A stretch of 64,000 nucleotides of DNA. Source: Arenicellales bacterium. GTDB lineage: Bacteria; Pseudomonadota; Gammaproteobacteria; Arenicellales; UBA868. The stretch lies in assembly GCA_050256425.1 (NCBI GenBank), contig JBBWVW010000086.1, positions 1,015 to 65,014 on the forward strand, read 5' to 3'. Both the position numbers and the translations under genes were made by a program. The notes below the pieces were generated by a model. That model made no database searches. It worked only from the letters and a program-made list of their open reading frames with translations, and was not told the DNA's origin. The stretch's first letter is position 1, and every line of letters begins with the position of its first letter. Shown one piece after another: positions 8,710 to 26,337 of this stretch.

Positions 8710-9075
<366 letters not shown>

Positions 9076-9374: not shown

Positions 9375-10187
9375 CTACATTTCCCGTTGCCAGGTATAAC
9401 GTTGCACCATTTTCGCTACGATGGCGTCAAGCGTATACCCGATGATGCCAATGACTACGACCATCGCTGATAAGTGATCGTATGACAATGTTTCCCTGGC
9501 ATCTTTGATCGCGTACCCAAGGCCTGAGCTAACGCCAAGCAGTTCCGCCGGAACCAGAACCACCCATGCGACACCCAGTGCCAGTCGTATTCCCGTAAAT
9601 ATATCGAAAGCAATTGCAGGAAAAATCACCTCTAATAACGTCTGTCTAAAATTTGCCCCAAGGTTTCTGGATACCTTAAACCATGCCGGATCCACTTTCT
9701 TTAATCCAGCAGCAGTCGCGTAAACAACAGGCCAAATGGCTGCGATTGCAATGAGAAAAATAATAGCTTGATCCCACCTGGGAAAAACAAACACCAGGAT
9801 AGGCATCCAGGATAGTGGGCTCACCATTCGTAGCAATTGAAATGGCTCATTACTGATCTGCTCAGTAACTTTGCTCAGACCGATCGCTATTCCTATTGGC
9901 ACACCAATTAAGACGGCTAAGAACAATCCAATCGCCAAACGGTAACCACTCGCCAGAACATTCTCGGTAATGTATCCGGATGAGAGTAGACCCGGCACCG
10001 CCTTCATTGTTGGAACTAAACCAAACTTGATAAAACTACTCGTCTCCGGGGTAATTGCCAGAAACCAGCTACCGATCGCCCAAAGGACGAGGAGGATTCC
10101 GACTCCTGTGGCCGGGTAAAGAACTCGGTCCCTCAACCAAACCAGACTTGTGTTCCGATCGATACCTTTAATATTTTCGCTAGCCAT
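9375..10187 (-). CDS. ABC transporter permease (NrtB/CynB/SsuC-like)
   Basis: LRMVSPLSWMP, EAA-like loop (SRNLGA) and LVPAELLGVSSGLGY. Confidence 0.9.
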   Translation of the reverse strand: MASENIKGIDRNTSLVWLRDRVLYPATGVGILLVLWAIGSWFLAITPETSSFIKFGLVPTMKAVPGLLSSGYITENVLASGYRLAIGLFLAVLIGVPIGIAIGLSKVTEQISNEPFQLLRMVSPLSWMPILVFVFPRWDQAIIFLIAIAAIWPVVYATAAGLKKVDPAWFKVSRNLGANFRQTLLEVIFPAIAFDIFTGIRLALGVAWVVLVPAELLGVSSGLGYAIKDARETLSYDHLSAMVVVIGIIGYTLDAIVAKMVQRYTWQREM

Positions 10188-10204
10188 GTCTTCAATACGT
10201 TAAG

Positions 10205-11023
10205 TTAACCACGATGCCAACTAAAACGCTTAATCAGTGCCATGCATACGCCGTCCATCAAGAATCCTAATATTCCGATTACCAGGATCATTACTGCCAG
10301 ATTGTCATACATCAAGTTTTCACGTGAGTCCTGGATCGTGTAGCCAAGACCTGAGGTTATACCAAGAAATTCTGCAGGCACAATGACAATCCACGCTACT
10401 CCGACGGCCAGCCGAATACCGGTTAAAACGTCAAATGCGATTGCTGGCAGAATGATCTCCTTCACGACATCCCACCAACGGGCACCGAGGTTTCGGGCAA
10501 CCTTGAACCACGAAGGGTCCAGCTTGGCAAGCCCAGCCGCAGTCGCGAAAGCGACGGGCCAAACCGCTGCCATCGAGATCAAGAAAATAATTGCCTGATC
10601 CCAGGTCGGCATAGCAATTACGGCTATCGGCTCCCAAGACAAGGGGCTTACCATTCTAAGAAATTGGAAGGGTGTATTACTTAACTTACGAAAAACTTTA
10701 CTTCTACCCATCAGAATCCCAATCGGCACTCCTGTGAGTATGGCAAGAAGCAAGCCCATTCCAAGGCGATAACCGCTCGCGAGACTTGCGTTTACTATGG
10801 TTCCGTCTTCGACTAAGTATGAGACCGCATTAAGAGCTGGGCCAGGCCCAAAATCGGCAAAACTGCTCGTTGAAGGGCTGCTCTCAAGTAACCAGCCACC
10901 ATACCACCAGAGACCAAACAAAATTGACAGCCCCATGAGGCTGTAAAACACTCGTGTTACCAGGGTTCTGAAGATTGCTCCCAGACGAGAGAAAGGTTGA
11001 TCGTTATTGGTCACTGTCGACAT
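10205..11023 (-). CDS. ABC transporter permease (NrtB/CynB/SsuC-like), second paralogue
   Basis: LRMVSPLSWEP, ARNLGA and IVPAEFLGITSGLGY. Confidence 0.9.
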   Translation of the reverse strand: MSTVTNNDQPFSRLGAIFRTLVTRVFYSLMGLSILFGLWWYGGWLLESSPSTSSFADFGPGPALNAVSYLVEDGTIVNASLASGYRLGMGLLLAILTGVPIGILMGRSKVFRKLSNTPFQFLRMVSPLSWEPIAVIAMPTWDQAIIFLISMAAVWPVAFATAAGLAKLDPSWFKVARNLGARWWDVVKEIILPAIAFDVLTGIRLAVGVAWIVIVPAEFLGITSGLGYTIQDSRENLMYDNLAVMILVIGILGFLMDGVCMALIKRFSWHRG

Positions 11024-11118
11024 AGCTAATGAAGAGTCTATTTTGTGGATTCTCAGCCAGTCTTCTTGATACGAATCGACGGGCCAAAGTACTCTATTCG
11101 ACTTTGATCGATCGCCGA

Positions 11119-11907
11119 CTATGGTGCTTCATCAGTGCCCCGTTCTTCGATACTTGAAGCCGCCCGGAATGTCTCCATTAAATGTTCGCGAAGTTTTTGA
11201 ACTTCGGAATCCTTAGCGTTACGCTCTTCTGGTAATGAAACGACGATCTCGTCCCTGATTTTCCCTGGTGAACCGGCCATGATCACGGCGCGGTCGGCCA
11301 TCAACACCGCTTCATCAATATTGTGAGTGACTATAACTAGATTTATTCCCAGGCTTTTTGCAATAGAGCGAACATCTTTTTGCAAAGCGGCCCGCGTGAA
11401 CGCGTCCAGAGCTGAAAATGGTTCATCAAGAAGCAGCATTTCGGGCTCCATAACCAAGGACCTTGCGAGCGCCACTCTTTGTTGCTGGCCGCCCGATAAA
11501 TCCTGAACGTTTGAGTCCGCAAAGTCTTCAAGATCTACGAGTTTTATGGTTTTCTCCACACGTTCTTGAATTTTTGATTCTGGCCAGTGAGCGAACTTCA
11601 AGCCGATGCCCACGTTCTGGCGAACATGCATCCACGGAAACAAATGGGGCGCTTGGAACATCATCACCCACCGCGGAGATGGATCCTTCACCGGGACATC
11701 ATCGATTCGGATTTCACCAGCAGTGGGGGCCAACAACCCTGCCATAATATGAAGTAAGGTCGACTTGCCACAACCAGATCGCCCAATAATTGCCAGTACC
11801 TCTCCAGGCAACGATTCTAGATTGACCTGGTCAAAGGTTATCGGGCCACGCGATGCATAGCTATGACTTAGTTCTTTTACGGCGATATGCACGCCCTGCT
11901 TACTCAT
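11119..11907 (-). CDS. ABC transporter ATP-binding protein (NrtD/TauB-like)
   Basis: GRSGCGKST, LSGGQQQR, LLLDEPF and VTH. Start is ATG 11907 or 11952. Confidence 0.93.
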   Translation of the reverse strand: MSKQGVHIAVKELSHSYASRGPITFDQVNLESLPGEVLAIIGRSGCGKSTLLHIMAGLLAPTAGEIRIDDVPVKDPSPRWVMMFQAPHLFPWMHVRQNVGIGLKFAHWPESKIQERVEKTIKLVDLEDFADSNVQDLSGGQQQRVALARSLVMEPEMLLLDEPFSALDAFTRAALQKDVRSIAKSLGINLVIVTHNIDEAVLMADRAVIMAGSPGKIRDEIVVSLPEERNAKDSEVQKLREHLMETFRAASSIEERGTDEAP

Positions 11908-12111
11908 TTCGCCCCTCCTCCTTACGATCTTTATATTTCTTGCGGCTTCCATAATAGGCCAAGCCGAAACTAATCTAACAACATCGACTAAATGCCATTA
12001 CAACATAATGGTTACTTGAATTAACCTTGAGGTTAGTAATAAGGTAATGCCTTTATACTTTAAGTATCCCATAAGTTATCCAAACAGTTAAACTGCAAAC
12101 ATACTTTCTCT

Positions 12112-12149
12112 AAGACGATCTAGTTATCTCCTAAATAGGAAATTCCTAT
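12112..12149 (-). promoter_or_regulatory. LysR-type operator copy 1, facing the ABC ATPase/permease operon
   Basis: Minus strand ATAGG-aattt-CCTAT-ttagga-GATAA-ctag-ATCGTCTT; contains a T-N11-A dyad. Confidence 0.75.
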
Positions 12150-12252
12150 TGGTGCTATTGGTTCTTCTTAAGAACAAGGGTAAACGTAAGAAATGCTAAC
12201 TCAAGATTTTACGATGGCAAACGGCCAATGAACTAGCCCTTGGGCAAAAACC

Positions 12253-13209
12253 ATGCCACGCAACACAATATTTCCTCGCTCCCTAAGGTACCTTTTAGCA
12301 GTCGCCAAGCACTCCAGTTTTACGCGCGCCGCAGAATCCTTGTTCGTTTCTCAGCCCGCTCTTTCCCAACAGATAAAACAACTTGAAGCGCAGATCGGCA
12401 TTCAATTGCTGGAACGTTCCGGACGGAATGTACACCTAACAGATGCCGGAGAAATTTATGTACACCACGTCAAGCGAGCGCTCGCAGAAATAAATGCTGC
12501 TGCGCAGGCCTTAGATGACCTAAGCGACCTAACGCGAGGCTCGCTGAACCTGGGGTTAACGCCAATAACCGACTACCTAACGGCGCCTCTAATCCGAGAC
12601 TTTATCACCAAATACCCGAGAATCTCTTTAAACACTATCGAGATGACACAGCAACAGATTGAAGAAGCGGTGCTGCAGGATCAGGTAAATCTTGGAGTCA
12701 TCTTCAGTGATTCATTTTCTCTTTCTACAAGATCGGCGGATCTAGAGATCTACACACTCTTAACTGACTCCCTCGTGTTGGCGGCCGCGAGTTCCACCCA
12801 TCTAACCACTAATGCTAATGAATGCCTCTATTTGGAAGAAGTTGGCTTAGTGAAGCACCCATTAGCGTTATTGAACTCACAGTTTGAGATGCGAAAGCAA
12901 ATTGATGCGTACTTTTCTTACCATGAGATTACGCCGAACGTCACACTAGAATCCAACTCACTCGGTGTAATTATCGAAGTCGTTCGCTCCGGAGAATTAC
13001 ATACAATATTACCCGCATCAATCGTCAAGTCACTAGGCGGTCTTACTCCACTCACGGTGAGCCCGCCGCTGCCGCAACACACTGTCACTATCATTATCAG
13101 AAAGTCTGCCTATCAAAGTCAGGCTTGTAGCGCTTTCCTTAAGCTTGCGCTGCTTTGGAGTCAGGTCCCTAGAGGCGTGCTCGCAGCAGCAAACAAGGCC
13201 CATGGATAA
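12253..13209 (+). CDS. cynR: CynR-like LysR-family transcriptional regulator
   Basis: HSSFTRAAESLFVSQPALSQQIKQLE and DLSDLTRGSL resemble E. coli CynR; cyanase is nearby. Confidence 0.8.
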   Translation: MPRNTIFPRSLRYLLAVAKHSSFTRAAESLFVSQPALSQQIKQLEAQIGIQLLERSGRNVHLTDAGEIYVHHVKRALAEINAAAQALDDLSDLTRGSLNLGLTPITDYLTAPLIRDFITKYPRISLNTIEMTQQQIEEAVLQDQVNLGVIFSDSFSLSTRSADLEIYTLLTDSLVLAAASSTHLTTNANECLYLEEVGLVKHPLALLNSQFEMRKQIDAYFSYHEITPNVTLESNSLGVIIEVVRSGELHTILPASIVKSLGGLTPLTVSPPLPQHTVTIIIRKSAYQSQACSAFLKLALLWSQVPRGVLAAANKAHG

Positions 13210-13355
13210 CCTAGACAACAACCTAAGTGAACCTTCTTTGGAGAGTTATCAATCATCGCACTTCATTCTTTTGAAAGCGCAAAGCCATTGTAATTAGCTG
13301 GTCTCTTGCTTGGCCGCAGCCTGTTTTTCAGTGATTTCTTTATCCGTCTTTCAAG

Positions 13356-14642
13356 TTAATCTACTTCCTTGCTGATTTGCCGATCAAACAACGACGGTCC
13401 ATAGAGCTCATTGGTGATAAGCGTGCAAATGGTCACAGCAATTATTGAGAAAATCGCCGCCTCGTAAGACAGGGTAAATTCAAGAACAATTAGAACCGTT
13501 GAAATCGGGGCCCCGAAAACAGCGGCAGCGACTGCAGCCATTCCTGCGATACTCAGACTTTCGCCTCCGGCAATTCCCAGAGCGGCTACCATTTTCCCAA
13601 ACAAACACCCTACCCCTGCGCCGATAAAAAGCGATGGCAAGTACACGCCGCCGTGCATCCCGCAGCCGATACATGTCACAGTAAGGAGCAGTTTAGATAT
13701 AACCAAAATTACTATTGTGGTCACCGCAAGATTGTTATGAAGAAGATCTGGAATTACATCAAGGCCAAGACCAAGCGCCCCGGGAACCCAAATTCCAATT
13801 ACTCCGCAGACCATTGCCGCAAAAATTAATGGCCCGATCCGCCCTTTCCAGGAATGATCAACCTTTTCGGTTACCTTCCCGAGCATAATCATGAAAACAA
13901 CTGCTGTAATCGCAAAAATAGGAGCGCCAAGGATAACAAACGGAAGTAACTCCAGCATCGAGCCTCCGACAACCTGATCGAATTGAATCCGACGTTCACC
14001 CAACATTTGTTCACTTAGGGCACTAGCCGTAATAGCCGCTATCGAAATCGGAGCAACTGCTCGTAGTGAGAATCGACGTAACACAACCTCATGGGAGAAA
14101 ACGATTGCCGCCATCGGCGTACCAAAGCCTGCGGCAATGGCGCCAGCAACACCGCATCCAATCCACGTCGAAGTAGAAATCGTGCTCCGAAGCACTCTAG
14201 AAACACCAGACCCGATAGCTCCACCGAAATGAACCAAGGGCCCATACTGTCCGACTGAAGCTGCCCCTCCAACCGAAATCAGCGCCGCCAGTGTAGAGCC
14301 AAAGCCAATTCGGATATCAACAACTTCACCAGATTGTGCAGCTTGAATCGTTTCTGCTGGGCCGTGAAACCGTTCGACTCTAAGGATGCGACGCAATCCA
14401 TATATGAGAAACGCCGCGGCCAGAAGAAATACCGGGCTGACAATTACTACCCATCCGTCCCCGTAACTTGAGGCGATGCGTCCAATAAAATCCGAGAAAT
14501 GTTTTATAGACTCTGCGATAAAAAGAAAGCCGCTCGCCGCGATGGCCATTATGGCTCCAATTCCCACTCCAACACCAACTCTTAAAAAAGAGTCTCTAAT
14601 AGGGCGATGACCCAGTTCTTTCACTGTTAAGTTTGTTTCCAT
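13356..14642 (-). CDS. CLC-family anion channel/transporter, atypical, no CBS domains
   Basis: GQYGPLVHFGG, GVAGAIAAGFGTPMAA, GGVYLPSLFIGA and AAVFGAPIS. Start trimmed to ATG 14642. Confidence 0.88.
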   Translation of the reverse strand: METNLTVKELGHRPIRDSFLRVGVGVGIGAIMAIAASGFLFIAESIKHFSDFIGRIASSYGDGWVVIVSPVFLLAAAFLIYGLRRILRVERFHGPAETIQAAQSGEVVDIRIGFGSTLAALISVGGAASVGQYGPLVHFGGAIGSGVSRVLRSTISTSTWIGCGVAGAIAAGFGTPMAAIVFSHEVVLRRFSLRAVAPISIAAITASALSEQMLGERRIQFDQVVGGSMLELLPFVILGAPIFAITAVVFMIMLGKVTEKVDHSWKGRIGPLIFAAMVCGVIGIWVPGALGLGLDVIPDLLHNNLAVTTIVILVISKLLLTVTCIGCGMHGGVYLPSLFIGAGVGCLFGKMVAALGIAGGESLSIAGMAAVAAAVFGAPISTVLIVLEFTLSYEAAIFSIIAVTICTLITNELYGPSLFDRQISKEVD

Positions 14643-14754
14643 ACTACCGGTCTGCAATCGTTGCCTTTGTGCACTATGAGACCAGCCCAGGTCAACGCCC
14701 AATCGTGCTATGGCTTCTCGAACCTTTTAAATGTTTCGTCTGGCGACGTGGCCC

Positions 14755-15195
14755 TCACCACGAACGGTACGGGAGAAACTTTCCACTCAAATCAAGGCGT
14801 ACTCGATCTCCATTTTCATTTTCTTCTCTAGATAAAGTCATTCTGAAATCGATCGCAGACATTATCCCATCCCCGAATTCCTCATGTATCAGCTCTTTAA
14901 TTGTCTCCCCATATACCCCTACCATTTCATAAAGCCTGTATATCACCGGATCCGTCGGTACGGTCTGTTCCCATTTTTTGTTTGGAAACTGCTGCAACGC
15001 AATTGATGCGTCCGCTGATAGCTCGAGATAGTTCACGACAGCATCCGCGTCCTCTTTATCCATATGGTTCATGCCAAGACAAGCCGAAACGACAAACTCA
15101 GGAGACATCGAGGTCTGCTCTGCTATCTGCCTCCATGAAACCGATTTCTTCGTTTTCGCTGTCTTGATCTCCTCTGACATCTTTACCTTATCCAT
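14755..15195 (-). CDS. cynS: Cyanate hydratase (cyanase)
   Basis: PTDPVIYRLYE, IHEEFGDGIMSAIDF and GKFLPY. ATG 15195 has a GGGAG SD. Confidence 0.96.
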   Translation of the reverse strand: MDKVKMSEEIKTAKTKKSVSWRQIAEQTSMSPEFVVSACLGMNHMDKEDADAVVNYLELSADASIALQQFPNKKWEQTVPTDPVIYRLYEMVGVYGETIKELIHEEFGDGIMSAIDFRMTLSREENENGDRVRLDLSGKFLPYRSW

Positions 15196-15298
15196 TTTCA
15201 AGCTCCCTAACCAAATTGTTTGTTGATGTATTGATGAACAACCTTATAGACCCAGGTACAACATTGTGATCTGATCGCGCCCACGCACTATGTGATAT

Positions 15299-16303
15299 CT
15301 AGTTCTGGCCAGAACGCTGAAGTAGTCTGGCGTCATTTGCCATCCCATAGATTTCAATGTTCCAACCTAACTCGACATCCAGTTGCTTTCGAGCAAGTCC
15401 GCGAAGTCGCTCGCCGAACCTCTCTATTTCAGATACGTCTAATTTCTTTTTCCCGATCAGAATATTCGGATAACGAGAATCCAGCCGTAGGCTTGAATCG
15501 GCGTCCTGCAAATCCCCAAGTTCAGCAATAATAGCTTTTGCTTTTGGGAGTTCTAGCTGCGACTTGGCATTATCGAATTCTTTTTGAATCACATAAAACG
15601 CATGTCCTGTGCGAAAACGCTCTGTTGAGTATGTTTTCTGATGTAGTGCTTTCATTCGAGAAAGCTTCTCCTCGAGTAAGGCAACGCGTCTTCGCTCTGG
15701 CTTAAGGACGGCCTGGACGATCACGCCGGTCTTAAGTTTCTCGCACAGCCTTGTGACCGTATCGACGTGGCCACGCTTTATTGTCTCTACCCGCCCATCT
15801 CGCCTCACAATCGTCGCGCGTAAAAAAGAATCGAGGATGCCGTTCTCAGCAAAACACGCGTTGCTGGCGAGGGCTCCACCAATGGTTCCGGGAATTGCCC
15901 CCAGAAAGGTAAGGTCAAAACCGTTTTCCAGCGCTTTTAGCACAATGTCTTTGGTGAATGCTCCTGCGCCCACTCGTATGGCGTTATTGGGCAGCACCTC
16001 AAAACCATTAAAGCGGGCCCCTAGGGACACTACTAGGCCCGCGAACCCCTCCTTTCTGAAAATCACATTCGAGCCTGACCCAGATGGAAGCACGGCAATT
16101 GATTCGGGCAGATCACGCATCAGAACACATAGGTCTGCCATATTCAAAGGTTGAATCAGTGCTACGGCCTTCCCACCAGAGTTAAACCACGTTTGTAGCG
16201 CAAAGTGAGCATCAAACTCAATATCACCTTGGATGTTGCCCAAGTAAGGCTTCGCGTCATTAGCCGTTAACGGCGACCCATCCTTACTGATAATGCTGCG
16301 CAA
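15299..16303 (-). CDS. MurB-fold FAD-binding protein with substituted catalytic residues
   Basis: FAD motifs GSGSNV and GAIPGTIGGAL are retained. SxGSVF is replaced by RTGHAF, HANF by YPNI, and LxxE by LGWN. Confidence 0.7.
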   Translation of the reverse strand: MRSIISKDGSPLTANDAKPYLGNIQGDIEFDAHFALQTWFNSGGKAVALIQPLNMADLCVLMRDLPESIAVLPSGSGSNVIFRKEGFAGLVVSLGARFNGFEVLPNNAIRVGAGAFTKDIVLKALENGFDLTFLGAIPGTIGGALASNACFAENGILDSFLRATIVRRDGRVETIKRGHVDTVTRLCEKLKTGVIVQAVLKPERRRVALLEEKLSRMKALHQKTYSTERFRTGHAFYVIQKEFDNAKSQLELPKAKAIIAELGDLQDADSSLRLDSRYPNILIGKKKLDVSEIERFGERLRGLARKQLDVELGWNIEIYGMANDARLLQRSGQN

Positions 16304-16474
16304 AATAGTGCTACCTCGGCGAATACTATCTTTCGTTAGTTTCTCATCCGCTTTATCTTCGACGCCATCTTAGATTGTCTGACACACCAGGGTGGCCCCG
16401 CTTGAAAAAGTGTATCTACAGCCATTCTCATTGTAAAACTCTGGGATTCTCAGTGATCAGCTCGCCTAGGCCAG

Positions 16475-16512
16475 ATAGGTTTTTCCTATTCTCTGGATAA
16501 AATAATCGTCTT
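16475..16512 (+). promoter_or_regulatory. LysR-type operator copy 2, facing DUF1348
   Basis: ATAGG-ttttt-CCTAT-tctctg-GATAA-aata-ATCGTCTT running into TTGAAT (-35-like). Confidence 0.78.
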
Positions 16513-16628
16513 GAATTTGACCACATCGCTGTCATGATGTTTCGTAGACTTGAAAGGCTCGATCTTCAAAATAGTCAAATTCACTATAGTTCGTCGAACT
16601 GAAATAACCAGAGGTTTTGGGAGGATTA

Positions 16629-17099
16629 ATGCAACCAACTGATCTTAAACCCCCGTTTAACTCGTCTACTGCAGCCAAAAAAGTACAGATGGCTGAGAAC
16701 GCATGGAATACTCGCGATCCAGAACGTGTGAGCCTGGCCTATACACCAGATAGCACATGGCGGAATCGCTCAGAACATTTCCAGGGACGAGACGCCATCG
16801 TGAAATTTCTTACCAAGAAATGGGAGAAAGAACTTGATTATCGTTTAGTCAAAGAACTCTGGGCATTTTCAGAGAACCGCATAGCCGTACGATTCCAGTA
16901 TGAATGGCGCGATCAAGAACAACATTGGCACAGATCATATGGAAACGAGCTGTGGGAATTTTCCGAAGAGGGCTTAATGCGGCGGCGGGAAGCAAGCATC
17001 AATGATGTTGCTATTGATGTTAGCCAACGTCGATTTTTCTGGCCCAGCCCAGGCCATCGACCCTCTGACCATGCTGGCCTGCTTCAGAGCCCAGAGTAA
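16629..17099 (+). CDS. DUF1348 / SnoaL-like (NTF2-fold) protein
   Basis: [36 protein letters not shown] and [10 protein letters not shown]; GGAGGA SD. Confidence 0.9.
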
Positions 17100-17228
17100 T
17101 TTAATGAGCTTATTAACCAGTGGTGGAATACTGGCGCCCGGTCCCCCTATTCTACAAATCGAGCCGCGGTGTGCTGCCACCCCAGGCAAGAAACTGCGCG
17201 GTGAACTACTGCCTTCGTGATCGTATTC

Positions 17229-17645
17229 TCAGGAAGTCTTTTGGGTGTGAGCGTTAAATTTTTTGAGAAACCCGGCTAACGAATAAATAGCTTGCTGGAC
17301 TTCGGAATCACGCAACAATCGAATCAATCCCAGATACCCACCATGACTCATGTTTTTTTCATCATTAGCGCCATCAAGGAGTTTCTCAGAGGTAAGCGCT
17401 TTTGCGACGCCCTCTAAATTCTCTTGCACTGCAGGGTCGCCTAGCGCCTGCAAGAGATGCATCAGCCCTTCGTTTCTCGTCACACGATCCATCAGGATCA
17501 TTCCTTCCCCAATCGTTGCTGCCAAACGTGTAACGATATCGTCAGTCATTGCATCCTGCGCGGCTGCAATGGCTGATGCTAACTCAATTAATTTATCAAG
17601 ATTTTGGGTTTCCAGATTGGCGCCCGCTTCTTTCAATTCGTTCAT
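17229..17645 (-). CDS. DUF1641-domain protein
   Basis: GYLGLIRLLRDSEVQQAI terminus; the family typically follows SQR-like genes. Confidence 0.75.
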   Translation of the reverse strand: MNELKEAGANLETQNLDKLIELASAIAAAQDAMTDDIVTRLAATIGEGMILMDRVTRNEGLMHLLQALGDPAVQENLEGVAKALTSEKLLDGANDEKNMSHGGYLGLIRLLRDSEVQQAIYSLAGFLKKFNAHTQKTS

Positions 17646-17695
17646 CGTATTTTTTCCATAGACATTGCAGTTGATGTTCTGGAAACTACTTTCGA

Positions 17696-18829
17696 TCAGA
17701 GAAGACCTCGCGCCGAGGACCAATACCATTGGTTATAGGACATCTTCAGCATGTGCATCGACTTGGTTGGCGGCCTGATTTCCGGTGGATCAATATAATT
17801 GAAGCATGCATTAGTTGCGCGGTCCTGGTCTGCTTCGATAAAGCAATACACCTTGCCGTCGTACTCTCGTGTTGCCGTCCCGGTTCGACAAAGAGATGCG
17901 ATGTTCTCACCGATTACTTCACTTTCAAAGTGGGCGGTTGAACCTGTTTTGCTGATTGGCAGGTTAGTGGTATCACCAAGCACGAAGACGTTATCCTGGC
18001 CGTCCATCCTTAGCGAATAACGGTCAGTCGGTATCCAGCCCCCCTCGCCAAGGTTATTATCTTCTATCACCTGCATACCTCTGTGAGGAGGGACGGCGAC
18101 TAACAGATCGAATTCTTTTTCTGTCCCCTCTTCGCTATGTACGATTTTGTTTTCGACATCGATCTCTTTCATATTGAAGAAAGTTTCGTAATCGACTTCC
18201 ATCCGCGCAAATTCCGGGATTGCCCATTTCGCGATGTTTTCAATGTTGTGTATCCGCGCAATCGGATAGGTGTACTTGAGATCGACCTTGTCGCGAATGC
18301 CGCGTTTTTTAAAAAATTCATGCAGCATGAAAGTGATCTCGATCGGCGCGATGGGACACTTATGCGGAACACCAACCACCACCACTACCTTGCCCCCTTC
18401 GAAGTCGCGCAGTTTTTTAAACATACTGACAGCGCCGTCTCGGGTATACGGTGTTTCAGACGACTCCTTAAGTCCAGGCACCTCGTCATATACCGCTTCA
18501 CAACCAGTCGCTATCACTAGCATGTCATAGTCATGGACAACCCCGGCTTTGGTACGAACGCGGTTACTGCTCATTTCAAATTCTTCAACAGGATCAACGA
18601 AAAACTTGATGCCCGGCTCCAAAAGACTCGATTGATCACGACAAATATCGTTAAGAGCCATTTTGCCAAACGCAACGTAAAGGAGCCCAGGCTGATACCA
18701 GTGTTGGTCCGAAGCGGACAACATTGTGATCTCCACGCTGCCTTGTCTGATTTCTTTGGAGAGTCGTCGCGCAACATTGTTTGCGGCGATCGTTCCGCCC
18801 ATTCCACCCCCGACGAACAGAATTCTCAT
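17696..18829 (-). CDS. sqr: Sulfide:quinone oxidoreductase-like flavoprotein (type III-like)
   Basis: GGGMGG FAD motif, HKCPIAPIE, VPPHRG, LPISKTGSTAHFE and VYCFIE (two active-site Cys). Confidence 0.8.
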   Translation of the reverse strand: MRILFVGGGMGGTIAANNVARRLSKEIRQGSVEITMLSASDQHWYQPGLLYVAFGKMALNDICRDQSSLLEPGIKFFVDPVEEFEMSSNRVRTKAGVVHDYDMLVIATGCEAVYDEVPGLKESSETPYTRDGAVSMFKKLRDFEGGKVVVVVGVPHKCPIAPIEITFMLHEFFKKRGIRDKVDLKYTYPIARIHNIENIAKWAIPEFARMEVDYETFFNMKEIDVENKIVHSEEGTEKEFDLLVAVPPHRGMQVIEDNNLGEGGWIPTDRYSLRMDGQDNVFVLGDTTNLPISKTGSTAHFESEVIGENIASLCRTGTATREYDGKVYCFIEADQDRATNACFNYIDPPEIRPPTKSMHMLKMSYNQWYWSSARGLL

Positions 18830-18914
18830 TTAGACCTCCTTATGAAATGCCAAACCCACTTTCGAAAAATACTTTTCACCACATACAAACTAACACCAGA
18901 CGGAAAGGGATATT

Positions 18915-19145
18915 TCACTTTATCTTGCGAACCTTTATGTGCCATACGTCATCGATCTTTTCGTTGCTAACAAGCTCGTGACCCACTTTACTGATCCACT
19001 CCGGTACATCGTTTGCAGAACCTTTATCGGTAGACAGCAGTTCTAACTGGTCTCCGACTCCAGCCCGCTTCATGAATGAGATCAGTTCCATCAACGGCCC
19101 TGGACAAAAAGTGTTCCGGGCATCGACTATTTTTTCTTCGGACAT
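18915..19145 (-). CDS. tusA: TusA-family sulfur carrier
   Basis: VDARNTFCPGPLM (CPxP) and DVPEWI motifs. Confidence 0.9.
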   Translation of the reverse strand: MSEEKIVDARNTFCPGPLMELISFMKRAGVGDQLELLSTDKGSANDVPEWISKVGHELVSNEKIDDVWHIKVRKIK

Positions 19146-19183
19146 AACGCTTCTCCACAAATGACACTTAGTGCCAGTTTCGT

Positions 19184-19576
19184 CTAAAACGAGACTATTC
19201 TTCCGTCTTCTGCATCAGAGAGGAACCGGGTCAATCCAGTAGCAGGTCCAAACTCTAACATCAGATCATCTGGACTAACCTTAAGGAGATCTAGAGCCAT
19301 TGAGCAGGCCAATAATTTAGCATCTCCGAGTTCGGCTGCCTGTTCAAATAATACCCTGAACTCTGGGACGCCCTTGACACCGATTAAATCCCCGAATGGT
19401 CCCTCCTTTGGCGGCACTAAGGTCGCATTCTGCTTAACGAGGAATTGAAGAGCGTTCATCGAAAAAAAGACCGACACTTCGCTTCCACTTGCTGCCGCGA
19501 CAGAAGCGACCATCGCTGCCATTTGCAGTTTTTCGAGTGTTCCAGAAACACAAATTATTGATAGTTTGCTAGTCAT
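19184..19576 (-). CDS. DsrE/DsrF/DrsH-like (DsrE2-type) sulfurtransferase
   Basis: SGTLEK, AAASGSEVSVFFS and KLLACSMALDLL (conserved Cys). Confidence 0.85.
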   Translation of the reverse strand: MTSKLSIICVSGTLEKLQMAAMVASVAAASGSEVSVFFSMNALQFLVKQNATLVPPKEGPFGDLIGVKGVPEFRVLFEQAAELGDAKLLACSMALDLLKVSPDDLMLEFGPATGLTRFLSDAEDGRIVSF

Positions 19577-19732
19577 GCTGATACTTGATTGGTAGTGAAC
19601 CGAACCTGTGTGAAGGAGCTCTAATTCTTGAAGAGCCTCACCTAACGGAGTTTTACGAAACTAGGCTTGTCATCTTCAGAGGCGCAACCCTATGAGTCTA
19701 CGAGACATCCTGACCCCAATGTGGCCAGTTTC

Positions 19733-19770
19733 AAGACGATAATTTTATCTGAAGAATAGGAAAAACCTAT
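19733..19770 (-). promoter_or_regulatory. LysR-type operator copy 3, facing dsrE-tusA-sqr
   Basis: Minus strand ATAGG-ttttt-CCTAT-tcttca-GATAA-aatt-ATCGTCTT running into TTGAAA. Confidence 0.78.
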
Positions 19771-19877
19771 ACTGGCCAAGCAAACTTATAACTAAAGCGT
19801 TAAAAACCTCAACAAGCAGTGTTCCTGAAAATCTACTATTCAGCCAGATCAGATGACCTTTGGGCTTGGTAGAGAAA

Positions 19878-20606
19878 TCAGCTCTCGCTTTGGATATGCC
19901 GCCTCACTGCCCAGCCCGAAAAACCCCCAAGCACCAGCCATAAGATCAGACTGCTAAGGCCAGTGGCTAGCAGAAAATCTTTTGACAACTCGGAGAGTTG
20001 ATCAGCGATGGCTATCGGAAACCCTTCGTAGAGATTCTCCGCGTGCGGTGCACCGTATATATGTGGCGCGCACAGAAGAACAACCAACCCGAGCCACTTC
20101 CATGGGCTACTCAGTATGTAGGCCAGGTACATACCTGCCCCACTACAGATTACAGTCGCTGTCCACCACCATTGCCTTAGTTCTAACGCAGCACCGGAAA
20201 CCCCCGGGATTTCAGGAGAAATACCAAAAGAAGGAGCGGCAAAAAAGGCAATGAAGCCTCCAAGGCCCCAAATGATCCCGGAAGAGGCGCTGATTTCAGT
20301 ATTTTTCCCAAACTTCAGTGAGGCCGTAGCTATTAAAGCGACCAGGACAAGTGCAAATCCAACAGCAGTTAATACGTTCGATAAAATCGTAAACAGAGTT
20401 CGCTCGATTCCATCACTGGGTTCCCAGTCCTCATCATGCTGGCCATCAGCGACTTGCGCTGTGTCTCCGGCGCCGACTTTCAGGCTTTCAAATTTCTCAG
20501 CCTGAACAATGATCGGAATCACTTGCCAGCGCTGGGCCAGACTGAGGGCAATGCCCCCAATCAGCCCAGCGATAAGCGCTATAACGATCAGCCGGCGAAA
20601 CAGCAT
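19878..20606 (-). CDS. cbtA: Cobalt transporter subunit CbtA
   Basis: VIPIIVQAEKFE, WEPSDGIERT, APSFGISPEIPG, RQWWW and PHIYGAP. Start trimmed to ATG 20606. Confidence 0.88.
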   Translation of the reverse strand: MLFRRLIVIALIAGLIGGIALSLAQRWQVIPIIVQAEKFESLKVGAGDTAQVADGQHDEDWEPSDGIERTLFTILSNVLTAVGFALVLVALIATASLKFGKNTEISASSGIIWGLGGFIAFFAAPSFGISPEIPGVSGAALELRQWWWTATVICSGAGMYLAYILSSPWKWLGLVVLLCAPHIYGAPHAENLYEGFPIAIADQLSELSKDFLLATGLSSLILWLVLGGFSGWAVRRHIQSES

Positions 20607-20619
20607 AACCGCCGCGGCC

Positions 20620-20814
20620 TTAGTGGCAGGGGAAGCCTTGAGAATGGCGCATATCGTGCCCCGCATTGTGGACTGATGATGTCTGAACAAAAGCGGCGGC
20701 AAACAACACTGTGGCACCAAGGGCAAACGCGCAAACAAGCTGCAAGCCCTTGCTGGCAAGCATTGGCGCTACCTGTGGAACTTCAACAACGTTTTGGTTG
20801 ACATGATTTTGCAT
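20620..20814 (-). CDS. cbtB: Cobalt transporter subunit CbtB
   Basis: Single TM helix followed by HNAGHDMRHSQGFPCH. Confidence 0.9.
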   Translation of the reverse strand: MQNHVNQNVVEVPQVAPMLASKGLQLVCAFALGATVLFAAAFVQTSSVHNAGHDMRHSQGFPCH

Positions 20815-20888
20815 AACTAAATCTCCTGGATTAAATTTTTTGACCACTAATCTTTAACCACTTTAGATGGTATTTTCGTATCGTCCGT

Positions 20889-22292
20889 TTAGATGATAAA
20901 CACCTCTTCGCGTTCGAACGGATTATCACCCTTTGGCACACTTGGATCGTTTCTCCATTCCGGATTAGCCATTAAAGAATTCCTTATATAGTCGTACTGC
21001 ACCAAGTCATTGACGACGAACTCTGGATCTAAAGTATCCAAGAACGTTCTATCGCCAGTGACTACCGTTTCGTTTTTCAACTCGTTTACTACCAAGCGTG
21101 TCGCAGAGGGGTAAGGCCATGCTTGGAAATCAATCCGATTTTGACCCCATTCTGTATGACGGATAGCTGCAGGATTATTGTAGTACGCCGGGTCGTAGAA
21201 CAACATAGCGCGCTCGACCACCTTGCTGGGGAAGGGATAGTACTTCTTGCCCTCACGCGACAACATCTGGGCCATTTCCTTGCGGTTAGATCCGGTGTAC
21301 AACTGGGCTTTAACAATCGCGTTATGCACTCCTTGAGCCCACGCAGCATGTTCTGGATCCATACAATCATCTTCATGCATGACTACGACACAGCATGGGT
21401 GTCCTTTCCAGACGTCGCCAGTGAATCGAAGCACTTTGCCGCCTGCCTTGATTTCACCTAAGGCATTAAAGGGTTCCGCAACGCAATACCCATCTATTTT
21501 TTTGGCCGCCAAAGCTGGTGGCATATCGGGCGGTGCTAAGACCTGGTAATTACATTCGTTTGCCGCCAAAGCTGCATCTTGTGGTCGAATGACCGATGTA
21601 ATACCTGCCGCTTTCATGATTTTTTGAGAGACGATATTATGAATTGAGTACCAATATGGTACAGCGAATTGCTTACCGCCAAAATCTGCCGGCGTCTTAA
21701 TATCTGCGTTTACAACGATCGCCGATCCGTTACTGTGATCCCAGGCGGTGACCTTCACCGGATACTGATTGTTATACCTCATCCAAATTGGTATCGGGAT
21801 AAGCATATGGGTCAGATTAAATCGGTGTGCAGAGAAAGCCTCTACCAGTGGAGACCAACCTCTAATGAGGGTTGGACGCTTGGAGTCAATACCTTCTTCT
21901 TTGAAGAAGCCCAGTTCATGTGCGACCAGAAGTGCTGCTGCGTCCGTGATCGGTATGTAGCAAATATTGATAACTGGATCGAATTTTTTCTTACCGAATG
22001 CGGGAAGCCCTGTAAGCCCAGTACCAGCAAGTGCTGCGCCGGCCTGAAGGACCGAGCGGCGGCTGATTCCCGTTCCCATAAATCCGCCAAACAGTGGATC
22101 AGAATTTGTCTTTAGGTATGGATCATCAATTCCATCACCAAATTTCTTGGCATCGAGGGGCAGACCCTTTTCATCAATGGGACCACCATCGACAAACTGC
22201 GCTTCCTCTGGGTCTAATAACTCTTTCTTAATAGCCGTAGACTGCGCTTTTGCTGCTAGAAACTTCACCTCTTCCTGTGTTAGCTTAGACAT
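20889..22292 (-). CDS. ABC transporter substrate-binding protein (NrtA/CmpA/CynA-like)
   Basis: YIPITDAAALLVAHELGFF, AVPYWYSIHN, GYCVAEPFNA and HPCCVVV; internal TAT motif SRRSVLQ. Confidence 0.9.
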   Translation of the reverse strand: MSKLTQEEVKFLAAKAQSTAIKKELLDPEEAQFVDGGPIDEKGLPLDAKKFGDGIDDPYLKTNSDPLFGGFMGTGISRRSVLQAGAALAGTGLTGLPAFGKKKFDPVINICYIPITDAAALLVAHELGFFKEEGIDSKRPTLIRGWSPLVEAFSAHRFNLTHMLIPIPIWMRYNNQYPVKVTAWDHSNGSAIVVNADIKTPADFGGKQFAVPYWYSIHNIVSQKIMKAAGITSVIRPQDAALAANECNYQVLAPPDMPPALAAKKIDGYCVAEPFNALGEIKAGGKVLRFTGDVWKGHPCCVVVMHEDDCMDPEHAAWAQGVHNAIVKAQLYTGSNRKEMAQMLSREGKKYYPFPSKVVERAMLFYDPAYYNNPAAIRHTEWGQNRIDFQAWPYPSATRLVVNELKNETVVTGDRTFLDTLDPEFVVNDLVQYDYIRNSLMANPEWRNDPSVPKGDNPFEREEVFII

Positions 22293-22479
22293 ACCTTTCC
22301 TCCAGCGTTAGCCGTTTTCTATTTAAAGTTAAAGTCTAATTCCTTCCAGAACGTATACTCGTCTTCTTATTACATCTGTCTCTCGTATATAACCTCACTA
22401 ACTTCCAATTGATTGTGTGCGTCCAATAGTAACTTGCGTTTTGGTACTATCGAGCCCAGCTGGCCTGCTTGCATTTCGC

Positions 22480-22815
22480 TCAAACTGCGTTCAGTCGCGT
22501 TTCAATAACCTTCATTTGTTGCGCAAGATCTTCTTCCGTAATAACTCCCCGTAGAATCATGCTGTGAGCAAGTGCAAGAAGTTGACGCTCTGGATGTGGA
22601 ATGTGCTTATAGTGATCCTCTACCAGATCATCCTCTTCACCCCGTCGTTCTAGAACAGGCAGGGCACACGCCCCCTCGTTGAGAACTTCACAGGTACTTT
22701 CGAGTGTTATCCTCCAGGGAGGATCTGGATTATCAACGCCATACTCCTCGCATAGGTCGGCCCACACCCGTCCTTCCTTTCCAATCTGTTCCAGCAATGG
22801 AATTGGTTTAGACAT
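22480..22815 (-). CDS. Thiocyanate hydrolase activator/accessory protein (P15K-like)
   Basis: Directly after scnC. NHase-beta-like C-terminus HPERQLLALAHSMILRGVITEEDLAQQM. Confidence 0.7.
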   Translation of the reverse strand: MSKPIPLLEQIGKEGRVWADLCEEYGVDNPDPPWRITLESTCEVLNEGACALPVLERRGEEDDLVEDHYKHIPHPERQLLALAHSMILRGVITEEDLAQQMKVIETRLNAV

Positions 22816-22824
22816 TTTTCAGAC

Positions 22825-23535
22825 CTAATGACCGTAAGGATGTACTGCGCGGTGAATCGGCCGCGTGTCGTCCGCCTTTCGATCTGCGCGTGGCATTGCG
22901 ACACCGATCAAGCAATCCCGTGTCACGATCTCCGCTAGTTGATCTTCGCTCCACCCTTCAGTGCCTTCAGGGCGGGTTGGCATCACCACGTATCTGGTCT
23001 TCTGGTTGGAATCAGCGACCCTTATTTCGACATCCTCGGGCAACTGCAGGCCGAACTCTGCTAGGACTTGGCGCGGCCACCTGACCAGTCGGCGACGATA
23101 ATTAGGGGTTCTGTACCACTCAGGGGACTGACCCAGTATAGGTCTTGGGTAGCAAGAACAAAGCGTGCACACCACTACATGCTTAAGCGTTGGTGTATCC
23201 ACCAGAATCCGGGGGTTGCAATAGTCGCTCGGTGTCCCAAACTTGGTTGGCATCGTGTTAATCCAGTCAATGCCTACATCAAGACTCGCCTTTACAGGAT
23301 CGTCTATACATAGTTGCTTGTAATCTTCATCTAGCCACGCCTTTGCGACCAATCGACCCGCGGGAAGCGGCCCAAGGGTATGCATATACTCTGTCCACTG
23401 GTTATGGTCATCTTGAGTGAATAGCCCTTTTTCAATACAGAGTTCACGGACCGCTACCTCAAGTACTTCAAAGTCGCTGACCTCATCCACCATAGGCGCA
23501 GGTGGACGGTGATCGTGATCATGTGAGTTTGACAT
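22825..23535 (-). CDS. scnC: Thiocyanate hydrolase gamma subunit (cobalt-binding)
   Basis: VVCTLCSCYPRPILGQSPEWYR. Thr marks Co-type, and Arg after YP is SCNase-like (NHases have Trp). Closely resembles Thiobacillus thioparus ScnC as I recall it. Confidence 0.95.
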   Translation of the reverse strand: MSNSHDHDHRPPAPMVDEVSDFEVLEVAVRELCIEKGLFTQDDHNQWTEYMHTLGPLPAGRLVAKAWLDEDYKQLCIDDPVKASLDVGIDWINTMPTKFGTPSDYCNPRILVDTPTLKHVVVCTLCSCYPRPILGQSPEWYRTPNYRRRLVRWPRQVLAEFGLQLPEDVEIRVADSNQKTRYVVMPTRPEGTEGWSEDQLAEIVTRDCLIGVAMPRADRKADDTRPIHRAVHPYGH

Positions 23536-23612
23536 TATGTTTTCCTCTTTACGTCAGACGAGTTCTTTTTCGTTTTTTACTTTGTGATCGATAGTAAAAT
23601 TATCTAGGCCGA

Positions 23613-23966
23613 TCAAATAGCCTCTAACCATCTTTCAGATAGTTCGGTCTCGAGCGTATCCCCTGCAAATTTGGGGGGATAATCTGGCCATAGGTCAGTT
23701 TGATTGAACACTACACTGTAGAACCACTCTGGAGTGTCTGTGTTATCCCAAGCCTCGTCCTCGGCAGCAGGACTTTCGTAAACCAACTTGACGACTATTG
23801 CCTCTGCTTCGCGAAGGTACATCTGCGAACGGGAATAGAAGATATCTGGCAAGTTGCGGATGCGCACTTTATCGCCCACGTTAAACTTCGGCTTTCCTGC
23901 CTCTCCCTTGAAGCACTGAGGATCCCCAATGCCAGTTGCTTTCTCAGCGTGATGATTATTACTCAT
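23613..23966 (-). CDS. scnA: Thiocyanate hydrolase alpha subunit
   Basis: ATGIGDPQCFKG, KFNVGDKVRI, LVYESPAAEDEA and DTLETE. Confidence 0.93.
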   Translation of the reverse strand: MSNNHHAEKATGIGDPQCFKGEAGKPKFNVGDKVRIRNLPDIFYSRSQMYLREAEAIVVKLVYESPAAEDEAWDNTDTPEWFYSVVFNQTDLWPDYPPKFAGDTLETELSERWLEAI

Positions 23967-24393
23967 AAATCTCCCCTCGCTTCTTAACCTCGTCGATCTT
24001 ATTAACCAATTCGGTCAGGGTAATATGCTGCTTGTCGACCAGCACTAGCGCCGCTGTCATCAACCACCTGCCGTAATACGGTAGCCCGAGGTATTGGGTC
24101 TGCCCGACGTCCACGTTTTGCCGCCGCCTACGCTCTTCAGCGTTCCAAACGCCACGCCATGCTAATACCTCACAGGTGACAAAAGTATTGTGTTCCCAAA
24201 TCTCCTCTTCTTTTTCTTCCCACGTTATAGGAATGTCGGCCTCACCTCCAACATCATGGGAGGAGCGTGTGTAAGCGCGGTAATGCGCGTTATCAATTAG
24301 GTCGGGATAAGGGGCGTGCTGCGGCTGATGAAGCGCAGGCTGAAGCTGCGCAACAATATTTAGATGCCGCATGATATTTTCGCGAGTTGACAT
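23959..24393 (-). CDS. scnB: Thiocyanate hydrolase beta subunit
   Basis: QPALHQ, HDVGGEAD, EKEEEIWE, LAWRGVWNAEERRRRQN and YLGLPYYGRW. Start trimmed to ATG 24393; overlaps scnA by 8 nt. Confidence 0.93.
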   Translation of the reverse strand: MSTRENIMRHLNIVAQLQPALHQPQHAPYPDLIDNAHYRAYTRSSHDVGGEADIPITWEEKEEEIWEHNTFVTCEVLAWRGVWNAEERRRRQNVDVGQTQYLGLPYYGRWLMTAALVLVDKQHITLTELVNKIDEVKKRGEIYE

Positions 24394-24458
24394 ATCTGTT
24401 TTGCGTCTCCGAATTGGAATTCTCAGCTTAAAACTACTCCTTGATCGTCCTTTGTGCC

Positions 24459-24496
24459 AAGACATTCTGGTTATTGACTGTATAAGAAAAGTCTAT
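24459..24496 (-). promoter_or_regulatory. LysR-type operator copy 4 (diverged), facing scnB
   Basis: Minus strand ATAGA-ctttt-CTTAT-acagtc-AATAA-ccag-AATGTCTT with identical spacing, running into TTGGCA; TAGTTT lies 18 nt further on. Confidence 0.65.
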
Positions 24497-24852
24497 TTAA
24501 TTTCTCAGGCAATCTCCAAACCTCTAGGATCAATCCAGACATCTAAGATTGTATAGCTTATTAACCATATCTCAATCATGGTAAATAAGCTTTAGTCGCC
24601 TGTATTTTTGAATAGCTGGCCCAATAGCGGGCTCACGCAAGTGTTTTGAAGCAACACGGGCATCAAGCCCTTCACCTAACACGATGCCCACGAGCAAACC
24701 CGAAGCAACAGCCACCCAAAAAACCGAACAGCCAAAAGCTGTATTTCAGCCTTCAACGCACCGTAACGATATGATTAGATTAATGAGCCTGGGCTTTAAT
24801 GGCGTTTCCAACACCTTGTCGCAAACTTGAACCTATTTCTTGCTACGGATTT

Positions 24853-25035
24853 TTAGGAAACTGAAGACATCTTATTCTTCCTTTTCTCAAGTTCCTTTAG
24901 CAGCGTAGTTTTCGCATAAGGCTTAAGAGCCTTCCATTTCTGACATTCCGCTTTAGTCCGCCCGCAGCCACGACACCAGCCTTTCGGTCCACCAAAATCG
25001 CAAACATCAATACACGGGCTTTTGTTGTGTTTCAC
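24853..25035 (-). CDS. DUF1289-domain small Cys-rich protein
   Basis: SPCIDVC...GWCRGCGRT..E...W pattern. Confidence 0.85.
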   Translation of the reverse strand: MKHNKSPCIDVCDFGGPKGWCRGCGRTKAECQKWKALKPYAKTTLLKELEKRKNKMSSVS

Positions 25036-25082
25036 AAATTCTTCGATCGCCGTCTATATCCCAATGATTACCAGTAATCAAA

Positions 25083-25526
25083 TCATTGTTGCAGGGTGCG
25101 TAAAATCCGATCAATCCCTGGCTCTAACTGGCGGAGCCGATTGAACTCTTCGTATAAACGATGTTCCAGATTCTTGAAATTTAAAGGAAGTACTCTTTGA
25201 CAAATACTATACCCATCGCCCATCACGTCATAACCTTTCCAACTTCGAATTTGTTCCCCTTCAGAATCTAGAAAGTCTCTAATAAAGGTCTGCTGCGACG
25301 GGCAATCCTCCTCCGCATGCATACAAATAGGGAAGACTTTTTGTCGAAGCTGTGGAGCTTCGATGTACGTTTCGAAATGCACCCCGCCCTGGCTCTCGTT
25401 GTACCAGGTGTCCTTATATAGTTGAAGGTACACGCCACGGTTGTATATCTCCCAACCATCCGCAAACCAGCTCGATTGCTCTAGTTTGCTCTGAAGATTA
25501 CGAAAAATAATTTTTAGATCTTTCAT
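25083..25526 (-). CDS. Hypothetical protein
   Basis: 147-aa ORF co-oriented between the PhzF-like and DUF1289 genes; no family recognised. Confidence 0.7.
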   Translation of the reverse strand: MKDLKIIFRNLQSKLEQSSWFADGWEIYNRGVYLQLYKDTWYNESQGGVHFETYIEAPQLRQKVFPICMHAEEDCPSQQTFIRDFLDSEGEQIRSWKGYDVMGDGYSICQRVLPLNFKNLEHRLYEEFNRLRQLEPGIDRILRTLQQ

Positions 25527-25548
25527 TTCTATCGACCTCGAGCACTCT

Positions 25549-26337
25549 CTAGTAATCAATCAAATCGCCCGAGACCAGGGTACAGCAAGGGCCTGAGACC
25601 TGAACACCATCGCTTAGTAATTTACAAAACATATTCCCGCCCTGTGGAGACAGTTGCTGGGAAGTAAGCTCGCTCTTTGACAGATGCGATGCCCAATAAG
25701 GAACCAAGGAACACTGTGCGACACCAGACACCGGATCCTCTGGAACTCCATTTGCCGGAGCAAAGAACCTCAAAACATAATCTGTTTCCTCTCCAGGTGC
25801 AGTCGCCGCAATAGTTGGGAGATCCAACTCTTCAAGAGAGAGAAAATCGGGCTCCAGAGACTGGACATCAGTAGCTTTGTCGTAAACCGCTACATAATGC
25901 CTTCCTTTAAGGACTTGCCGTGGAGGTTTCCCCAGGCCCACGCACAAACTATCTGGCGGATCACAAGGTTTTACCGTATCGGCGGGCAAAACCATAGCCA
26001 AATTACCCGAATCCCGAAAAGCGGACAATCTCCCACTCAAACTTGAAACTAGGGTAACTTCGTCTCGCCGAGGTTCCAGTTCAGACAAGACAACGTGAGC
26101 TGCCGCCAGCGTGGCGTGCCCGACAAGGGGCAACTCTTTTGTTGGCGTAAACCAGCGAATTGAGTATTCGCCGCTGCCTCCACTGATAAATGCCGTCTCG
26201 GAGACATTGAACTCCTTCGCCAGCGCCTGTAATTGATCGTCGTGCAGTTCTTGTGAAATTACACAAACGACTGCCGGGTTTCCAGAATATGGCTTGGCGC
26301 TAAAGGCATCCACCCAGTACATCCGATTACTTGTCAT
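25549..26337 (-). CDS. PhzF-family isomerase/epimerase-like protein
   Basis: VDAFSAKPYSGNPA, SETAF, RWFTP.KELPLVGHATLA, RFFAP and EDPVSG. Confidence 0.88.
   Translation of the reverse strand: MTSNRMYWVDAFSAKPYSGNPAVVCVISQELHDDQLQALAKEFNVSETAFISGGSGEYSIRWFTPTKELPLVGHATLAAAHVVLSELEPRRDEVTLVSSLSGRLSAFRDSGNLAMVLPADTVKPCDPPDSLCVGLGKPPRQVLKGRHYVAVYDKATDVQSLEPDFLSLEELDLPTIAATAPGEETDYVLRFFAPANGVPEDPVSGVAQCSLVPYWASHLSKSELTSQQLSPQGGNMFCKLLSDGVQVSGPCCTLVSGDLIDY

Follow-up and report, generated by a model that had tools for sequence, protein, structure and literature searches.

Why should two near-identical stretches of DNA face each other across a small sulfur gene cassette in a marine gammaproteobacterium? 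The question is raised by a 64,000-nucleotide stretch of an Arenicellales bacterium (GenBank assembly GCA_050256425.1, contig JBBWVW010000086.1, positions 1,015 to 65,014 of the forward strand; hereafter the window), where one arm of an inverted repeat (P1) lies upstream of a DUF1348 gene and the other (P2) upstream of an operon for a DsrE-family protein, a TusA-family sulfur carrier, a sulfide:quinone reductase (SQR)-like enzyme and a DUF1641 protein. Taken as a whole, the explanation that we consider probable is that the arms are two of the regulator-controlled promoters of a thiocyanate/cyanate/sulfur utilisation island, that the DUF1348 promoter of the window's clade was copied from the dsrE promoter once the lineage of a related species (L008) had split off, and that the inverted orientation follows from the convergence of the two units and has no switching role.

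Aligned globally, 16469-16550 (+) and the reverse complement of 19695-19777 gave 70 matches, 12 mismatches and one gap in 83 columns, exactly the figures that the original prediction had counted as about 70/83 identities. A repeat search extended the arms to 99 nt each (16452-16550 and 19695-19793), with 78% identity ungapped and 81/100 once two gaps were allowed. The local alignment score of arm against arm was 101, compared with 14.4 +/- 2.3 for shuffled sequences (n=2000). In a BLAST search of the whole 2.67-Mb assembly, the second arm was the only other match (84% over 85 nt, E 2.9e-19) and no third copy of the repeat was found. The longest exact block shared by the arms is 18 nt (ATAGGTTTTTCCTATTCT), and they differ at 16% of positions. 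On the inner side the similarity ends abruptly, at the hexamer TAGACT, bearing out the prediction that the match runs past the operator through a -10-like region. The 5' leaders between arms and start codons (78 and 118 nt) were no more alike than shuffles, and the same was true of the DNA outside the arms. Similarity reaching into the leaders, hinted at by a first MAFFT alignment, was ruled out by the shuffle comparison. Both copies face inward at converging genes, as had also been claimed, with DUF1348 on the plus strand and dsrE-tusA-SQR-like-DUF1641 on the minus strand (19576-17229), and it is because these two transcription units converge that the arms form an inverted pair. Promoter reuse has been defined by at least 80% identity over at least 50 nt ahead of unrelated genes (Nijveen, Matus-Garcia and van Passel 2012, PMC3575422). 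The corresponding values here are 84% over 83 nt, with dissimilar flanks and leaders and with downstream genes, DUF1348 and DsrE, that belong to unrelated families.

What the arms contain points to a regulated promoter. At the start of each is a LysR box of the T-N11-A type (box 1), the perfectly palindromic 15-bp sequence ATAGG-N5-CCTAT. Across the 2.67-Mb assembly the exact palindrome has only three occurrences, all of them intergenic and within the island: one in each arm, and one at 12135 in the gap separating cynR from the ABC transporter operon. A second, half-symmetrical box (GATAAAATWATCGTCTTGAA; box 2), whose centre lies 22 nt downstream of that of box 1, is kept in all four island promoters. 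Alignment of these four promoters showed that they have a two-box operator of about 38 nt in common and that, beyond the operator, only P1 and P2 are alike. In a phylogenetic-footprinting study of LysR-type regulators (PMC5002191), the CynR sites of cynT are inverted repeats of 15 bp, ATAA-n7-TTAT, with their centres at -66, -44 and -34. The arms show the features of LysR-type control: a T-N11-A palindrome, a less symmetrical second site about two helical turns downstream and next to the -35 element, and a nearby gene for a cognate LysR-type transcriptional regulator (LTTR), divergent from its target with the operator at 12109-12152 in between. From the match to the published motif we infer that the arms are CynR-type, LysR-regulated promoters, and on the same ground we propose CynR binding, activation and an inducer. 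A tetramer of the island's CynR homologue would bind box 1 and box 2. In response to cyanate or a related pseudohalide, CynR would then activate transcription inward from both arms, and DUF1348 and the DsrE-TusA-SQR-like-DUF1641 module would be switched on with the transporter and thiocyanate hydrolase operons.

Downstream of box 2, both arms have the same layout: a -35-like TTGAAW beside or overlapping box 2, a 23-bp spacer, and a block, GATGTYTCGTAGACT, that ends in a -10-like hexamer. This hexamer, TAGACT (TAnnnT), is present in all dsrE promoters examined, save for a single substitution in L130, and is the best candidate for the -10 element. A sigma-54 reading of TGGCC/TTGACC was rejected by eye, the GG-N10-GC spacing being unfit. 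No Rfam family was found in 16200-20000 at E <= 1, and a consensus terminator scan gave no convincing terminator between the convergent units. Metatranscriptome contigs indicate that both units are transcribed in seawater; their 5' ends are not defined by these contigs. Just beyond the outer edge of the left arm there is a sigma-70-like site, TTTACA-17-TACACT (9/12), at 16409-16437 (-), facing the unit of the FAD (flavin adenine dinucleotide) enzyme, cynS and the CLC channel. Box 1 at 16475 might serve both divergent promoters, in which case the replacement of P1 may have touched cyanase regulation too.

The history of the pair can be read from related species. Seven of them, marine gammaproteobacterial metagenome-assembled genomes (MAGs; including L008, L010, L011, L012, L013 and L018), keep the gene order of the island, including the convergent DUF1348 and DUF1641. 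Searches with the arms gave no match, either by BLAST against 40 relatives or by blastn-short against the related loci; because the promoters are too diverged for BLAST, upstream regions were collected by gene position. The dsrE promoters of the relatives all keep the box and, at an equal distance from box 1, GTCTCGTAGACT (with one substitution in two of them). The DUF1348 promoters of the species outside the window's clade (the outgroups) have neither GTCTCGTAGACT nor TCGTAGACT and end in CATGATACTCT. Where the window has its operator they carry a nearly invariant block, GGATCCGATTTTCTTACC..TCGATAATCAAATCGTCTTGG, the second box of which matches box 2 of the window at 15/18 positions by eye. 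A hidden Markov model (HMM) built from the window's four sites found the transporter and scn operators of the outgroups strongly and the L008 dsrE operator with an E of 4e-8; just upstream of DUF1348 it gave weak matches in four outgroups (E 9e-4 to 0.03) and an E of 2 in L008. The outgroup DUF1348 promoters of L011 and L013 also contain a tandem repeat of the -10-like block (GATACTCT ... GATACTCT in L011).

Pairwise identities, computed over the 83-column core, separate the two groups. Within one genome, P1 and P2 are 74-84% identical in the window's clade (84% being the pairwise window alignment) but 34-40% identical in outgroups. The L008 dsrE promoter is 66% identical to window P1 and 63% to window P2, while window P1 is only 44% identical to the L008 DUF1348 promoter and 40-44% to outgroup DUF1348 promoters. 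We read P1 as a copy of the dsrE promoter because the identity of P1 and P2 is high in the clade and low in outgroups, and because window P1 is nearer to P2 of L008 than to P1 of L008. As the definition of promoter reuse asks of a derived copy, it is absent at the orthologous position in relatives. In a maximum-likelihood (ML) tree (106 columns, unrooted), a branch with 98/100 support splits outgroup P1 from all other sequences. The direction of copying rests on the distances, the shared blocks and the rate argument given below, not on the tree.

The timing follows from sister lineages of about 92% nucleotide identity, seen in metagenome contigs (L124/L125, L128 and L129 on one contig, L130/L133, and L131), all of which carry both arms. 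P1-specific and P2-specific positions are common to these lineages, and because they share these arm-specific differences we favor a single event in the clade ancestor with no continuing homogenisation. In that ancestor, about 99 bp of the dsrE promoter would have overwritten the earlier promoter of DUF1348, a neighbour that was already co-regulated, probably by ectopic gene conversion seeded by the common operator, and the copies would then have diverged independently to 84% identity. A plain 99-nt insertion was considered and rejected, since box 1 aligns at the position of the outgroup box. The distance from box 1 to the ATG, judged by eye, is 154 nt compared with about 126 nt in outgroups, or about 28 nt longer. 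The check for one or two copies in related islands, suggested along with the original prediction, separated the clade's sister lineages, which have the pair, from the outgroups, whose DUF1348 promoters are unlike the dsrE promoter. Of the prediction that a whole promoter was recently duplicated, the copying stands and extends from the operator through the -10-like hexamer; the word recently does not, given that the arms differ at 16% of positions and that sisters of about 92% identity carry the pair. We found nothing directly relevant in the literature on promoter gene conversion or on thiocyanate hydrolase in the marine UBA868 group.

Several observations weigh against this explanation. The operator matches in outgroup P1 are weak, and the ML tree is poorly resolved inside the group formed by P2 and clade P1, with clade P1 placed intermediate between P2 and the P1 of the outgroups. 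Taking TAGACT as the -10 element moves the centre of box 1 to about -75, a helical turn further upstream than in E. coli cynT (-66); under the E. coli geometry (about -66), transcription would start within TAGACT, TTGAAW would be the -35, and the -10 would be a poor one, GATGTY. A consensus promoter scan called neither arm. Finally, one metatranscriptome contig (run X24, at least 99% identity) covers 19158-19751, that is dsrE, its leader, TAGACT and box 2, and stops 5 nt before box 1. Its extension upstream of TAGACT may reflect read-through from cbtA, carry-over of DNA into the library, or transcription that begins farther upstream than in the model.

Two other origins for the pair would make different use of the same data. 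The original prediction had the duplication recruit a new gene, so that a recent whole-promoter duplication would have brought a previously unregulated DUF1348 into the regulon. The copying itself is real, and the HMM matches upstream of DUF1348 in the outgroups, L008 included, are weak enough to leave room for this reading. However, DUF1348 already occupies the same convergent position in the island of seven species, with a weaker two-box operator upstream; the nearly invariant outgroup block, with its second box so like that of the window, points the same way, the pair is common to lineages about 8% diverged, and the arms differ at 16% of positions. We consider recent recruitment unlikely, and DUF1348 was most probably under the same regulator before the copying. 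Alternatively, no copying took place, and P1 and P2 are ancient paralogous promoters kept alike in the clade by strong shared constraint and decayed elsewhere. Both arms must bind one regulator, and the intermediate place of clade P1 in the unrooted tree is compatible with a slowly evolving P1. Yet within the clade the arms change about as fast as or faster than their surroundings (the P1 core of the window and L124 is 89% identical, compared with 92% over 2.7 kb), and P1 and P2 are alike in the 23-nt spacer too, a part that orthologous dsrE promoters do not conserve. Because the arms evolve at ordinary speed, and orthologous dsrE promoters (window versus L008) are only 63% alike, an identity of 84% held since before the radiation of the genus is implausible, and we regard ancient paralogy as rather improbable.

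Bracketing repeats also invite readings in terms of rearrangement. The arms could serve as a switch, with the 3.1-kb cassette inverted between them by recombination, whether homologous or site-specific, and their orientation and 84% identity over 83 nt would suit such a role; the original prediction had raised inversion by homologous recombination. The assembled contigs, on which the evidence rests and from which rare inverted molecules could escape, speak against it: every contig spanning both arms is colinear, among them at least four (L105, L108, L110 and L111), assembled from different metagenome samples of the window's population, at 99.7% identity or above, and a Logan contig spanning 16200-19929, and no inversion joints were found in four DNA runs. 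The orientation is identical in all sister and outgroup lineages, and no recombinase is present among the genes called across 9-26 kb (transporter, regulator, cyanase, CLC, FAD enzyme, DUF1348, sulfur module, CbtA/B and thiocyanate hydrolase). Efficient RecA exchange needs about 25 bp; the 18-nt longest exact block falls short of this, so RecA-dependent exchange should be rare. Moreover, a flip would just swap the upstream halves of two promoters, and because both are co-regulated no switch would be expected from it. Inversion as a switch thus appears highly improbable. The arms could also be the terminal inverted repeats of a mobile element carrying the cassette, a reading prompted by a bracketing repeat within a low-GC island. 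Against this, relatives have the same cassette at the same locus without the repeat, there is no transposase and, by BLAST, no further copy in the genome, and the positions of the arms are those of promoters that carry operators and have orthologues. We give this reading hardly any credence. The arms are better described as two promoters of converging units, one probably copied from the other.

Variation among strains was apparent at both arms. Logan contigs from DNA runs X2, X4 and X11 repeatedly break within the left arm (16472-16589), where short alternative contigs carry sister-lineage alleles (16502 A>G, 16516 T>G, 16526 T>C, 16534 A>G and 16547 G>A), which indicates co-occurring strains, not rearrangement. 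In the right arm, position 19718 is G in most population contigs and A in the window, a minority allele; G at this position lifts the arm-to-arm identity from 83.7% to 84.9%. In L130/L133 the dsrE promoter is 78% identical to that of the window and CbtA 83% at the amino acid level, compared with 98% for the SQR-like protein and 95% for DsrE. The diverged segment of L130 comprises the promoter (10771-11069) and cbtA (11069-11950), suggesting a recombination breakpoint or an imported segment around P2 and cbtA.

The features of the arms and the genes around them are collected in the table below. The island (window 9000-26500) further holds three ABC transporter genes, a CLC channel, a cyanase, an FAD-binding enzyme, CbtA/CbtB, an NMT1-type binding protein and a nitrile-hydratase-type enzyme, the alpha-like subunit of which passes the cut-off for the thiocyanate hydrolase gamma subunit (370 bits vs 291). 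Its GC content is 46-49%, compared with 56-62% in the flanks. Of 28 genomes of the genus, 7 have the island, as does one genome of a sister genus. The low GC content and the presence in only a quarter of the genus genomes suggest that the island was acquired horizontally or has often been lost. In MAG RS826 of the sister genus (L009, PBOB01000045, and L026, PBOB01000061), there is no DUF1348, FAD enzyme or cyanase beside the sulfur module, and DUF1348 lies on another contig without a recognisable operator. In the sister lineage L128 (4806-6147), the CLC gene matches the window protein in two pieces, split at residues ~181/254, suggesting a frameshift or a disrupted gene.

Table. Coordinates in the window of the repeat arms, their predicted promoter elements and the associated genes.
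Feature	Coordinates	Strand	Basis
Left arm (P1), upstream region of DUF1348, probable derived copy of the dsrE promoter	16452..16550	+	Repeat; nearer dsrE promoters than outgroup DUF1348 promoters
Right arm (P2), upstream region of the dsrE-tusA-SQR-like-DUF1641 operon, probable ancestral (donor) version	19695..19793	-	Repeat; orthologous dsrE promoters keep GTCTCGTAGACT and box spacing
Box 1 of P1, perfect palindrome ATAGGTTTTTCCTAT (T-N11-A; ATAG-n7-CTAT), candidate high-affinity CynR/LTTR recognition site	16475..16489	.	Comparison with PMC5002191 motif
Box 2 of P1, GATAAAATAATCGTCTTGAA, candidate activation site, overlaps -35-like hexamer TTGAAT	16496..16515	+	
TAGACT, -10-like hexamer at inner end of P1; in relatives characteristic of dsrE promoters alone	16545..16550	+	
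Box 1 of P2, identical perfect palindrome	19756..19770	.	
Box 2 of P2, GATAAAATTATCGTCTTGAA	19730..19749	-	
TAGACT, inner end of P2, part of the GTCTCGTAGACT block, which all dsrE promoters examined retain (single substitutions in two)	19695..19700	-	
Third two-box operator (ATAGGAATTTCCTAT...), between cynR and ABC transporter operon; only the ~38-nt operator in common with the arms	12109..12152	-	
Fourth, degenerate operator (ATAGACTTTTCTTAT...), upstream of thiocyanate hydrolase operon	24456..24498	-	
DUF1348 gene (SnoaL/NTF2-like), downstream of P1	16629..17099	+	PF07080, E 7e-64
DsrE-family gene, first gene downstream of P2	19184..19576	-	Family match
TusA-family sulfur carrier gene	18915..19160	-	Family match
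FAD oxidoreductase gene, 377 aa	17696..18829	-	Best match type III sulfide:quinone reductase, below the model's cut-off
DUF1641 gene, last of the P2 unit, convergent with DUF1348	17229..17729	-	Family match
CynR-equivalog LysR-type regulator gene, product the presumed binder of the boxes	12253..13209	+	NF008416, 318.9 bits vs cut-off 277; HTH_1 and LysR_substrate

Read in this way, the inverted repeat becomes a dated, directional promoter replacement within a regulon, and a phase-variation reading is ruled out on assembled contigs. The locus also yields a testable operator model, ATAGG-N5-CCTAT with box 2 22 bp downstream, for a CynR-type regulator that seems to govern the entire thiocyanate/cyanate/sulfur island in uncultured marine Gammaproteobacteria, and it ties DUF1348 more firmly to a sulfur-handling module. 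As to why the replacement persisted, one tentative idea, which we hold to be unlikely, is that the gene conversion was fixed because DUF1348 gained the regulator affinity and the core promoter of the DsrE-TusA-SQR-like module. If this were true, DUF1348 would be needed in step with the module for sulfur freed from thiocyanate, for example acting on carbonyl sulfide (COS) or a persulfide intermediate, which would give a concrete pointer to what this uncharacterised family does in abundant marine Gammaproteobacteria.

The locus can be compared with three known systems. With E. coli cynR-cynTSX it has in common a CynR-equivalog regulator, 15-bp repeats of the form ATAx-n7-xTAT, centres 22 bp apart (as IR1 and IR2) with the upstream site better conserved, a site in the regulator's own divergent intergenic region, and a cyanase gene in the cluster. 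It differs in that one regulator seemingly serves four promoters, including those of the sulfur-carrier/SQR-like, DUF1348 and thiocyanate hydrolase units, in that the half-sites are ATAGG/CCTAT, and in that no third site, corresponding to IR3, was recognised 10 bp after box 2. Invertible switches such as fimS and the hin type likewise have inverted repeats flanking a segment with genes and promoters; unlike them, this locus has no recombinase gene, a single orientation in all assemblies, 99-nt arms at 81% in place of short exact sites, and a flip that would be neutral for regulation. The likeness to putative mobile promoters (PMC3575422) lies in two similar upstream regions ahead of unrelated coding sequences in one genome, the similarity stopping short of the genes. 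In contrast to those, donor and recipient here lie 3 kb apart in one island with an operator already in common, suggesting replacement within a regulon and not rewiring, and the event can be assigned to a single clade and given a probable direction. Overall, the P1/P2 pair is not a new kind of element; it is a new, well-dated example of known phenomena, CynR-type control and promoter reuse.

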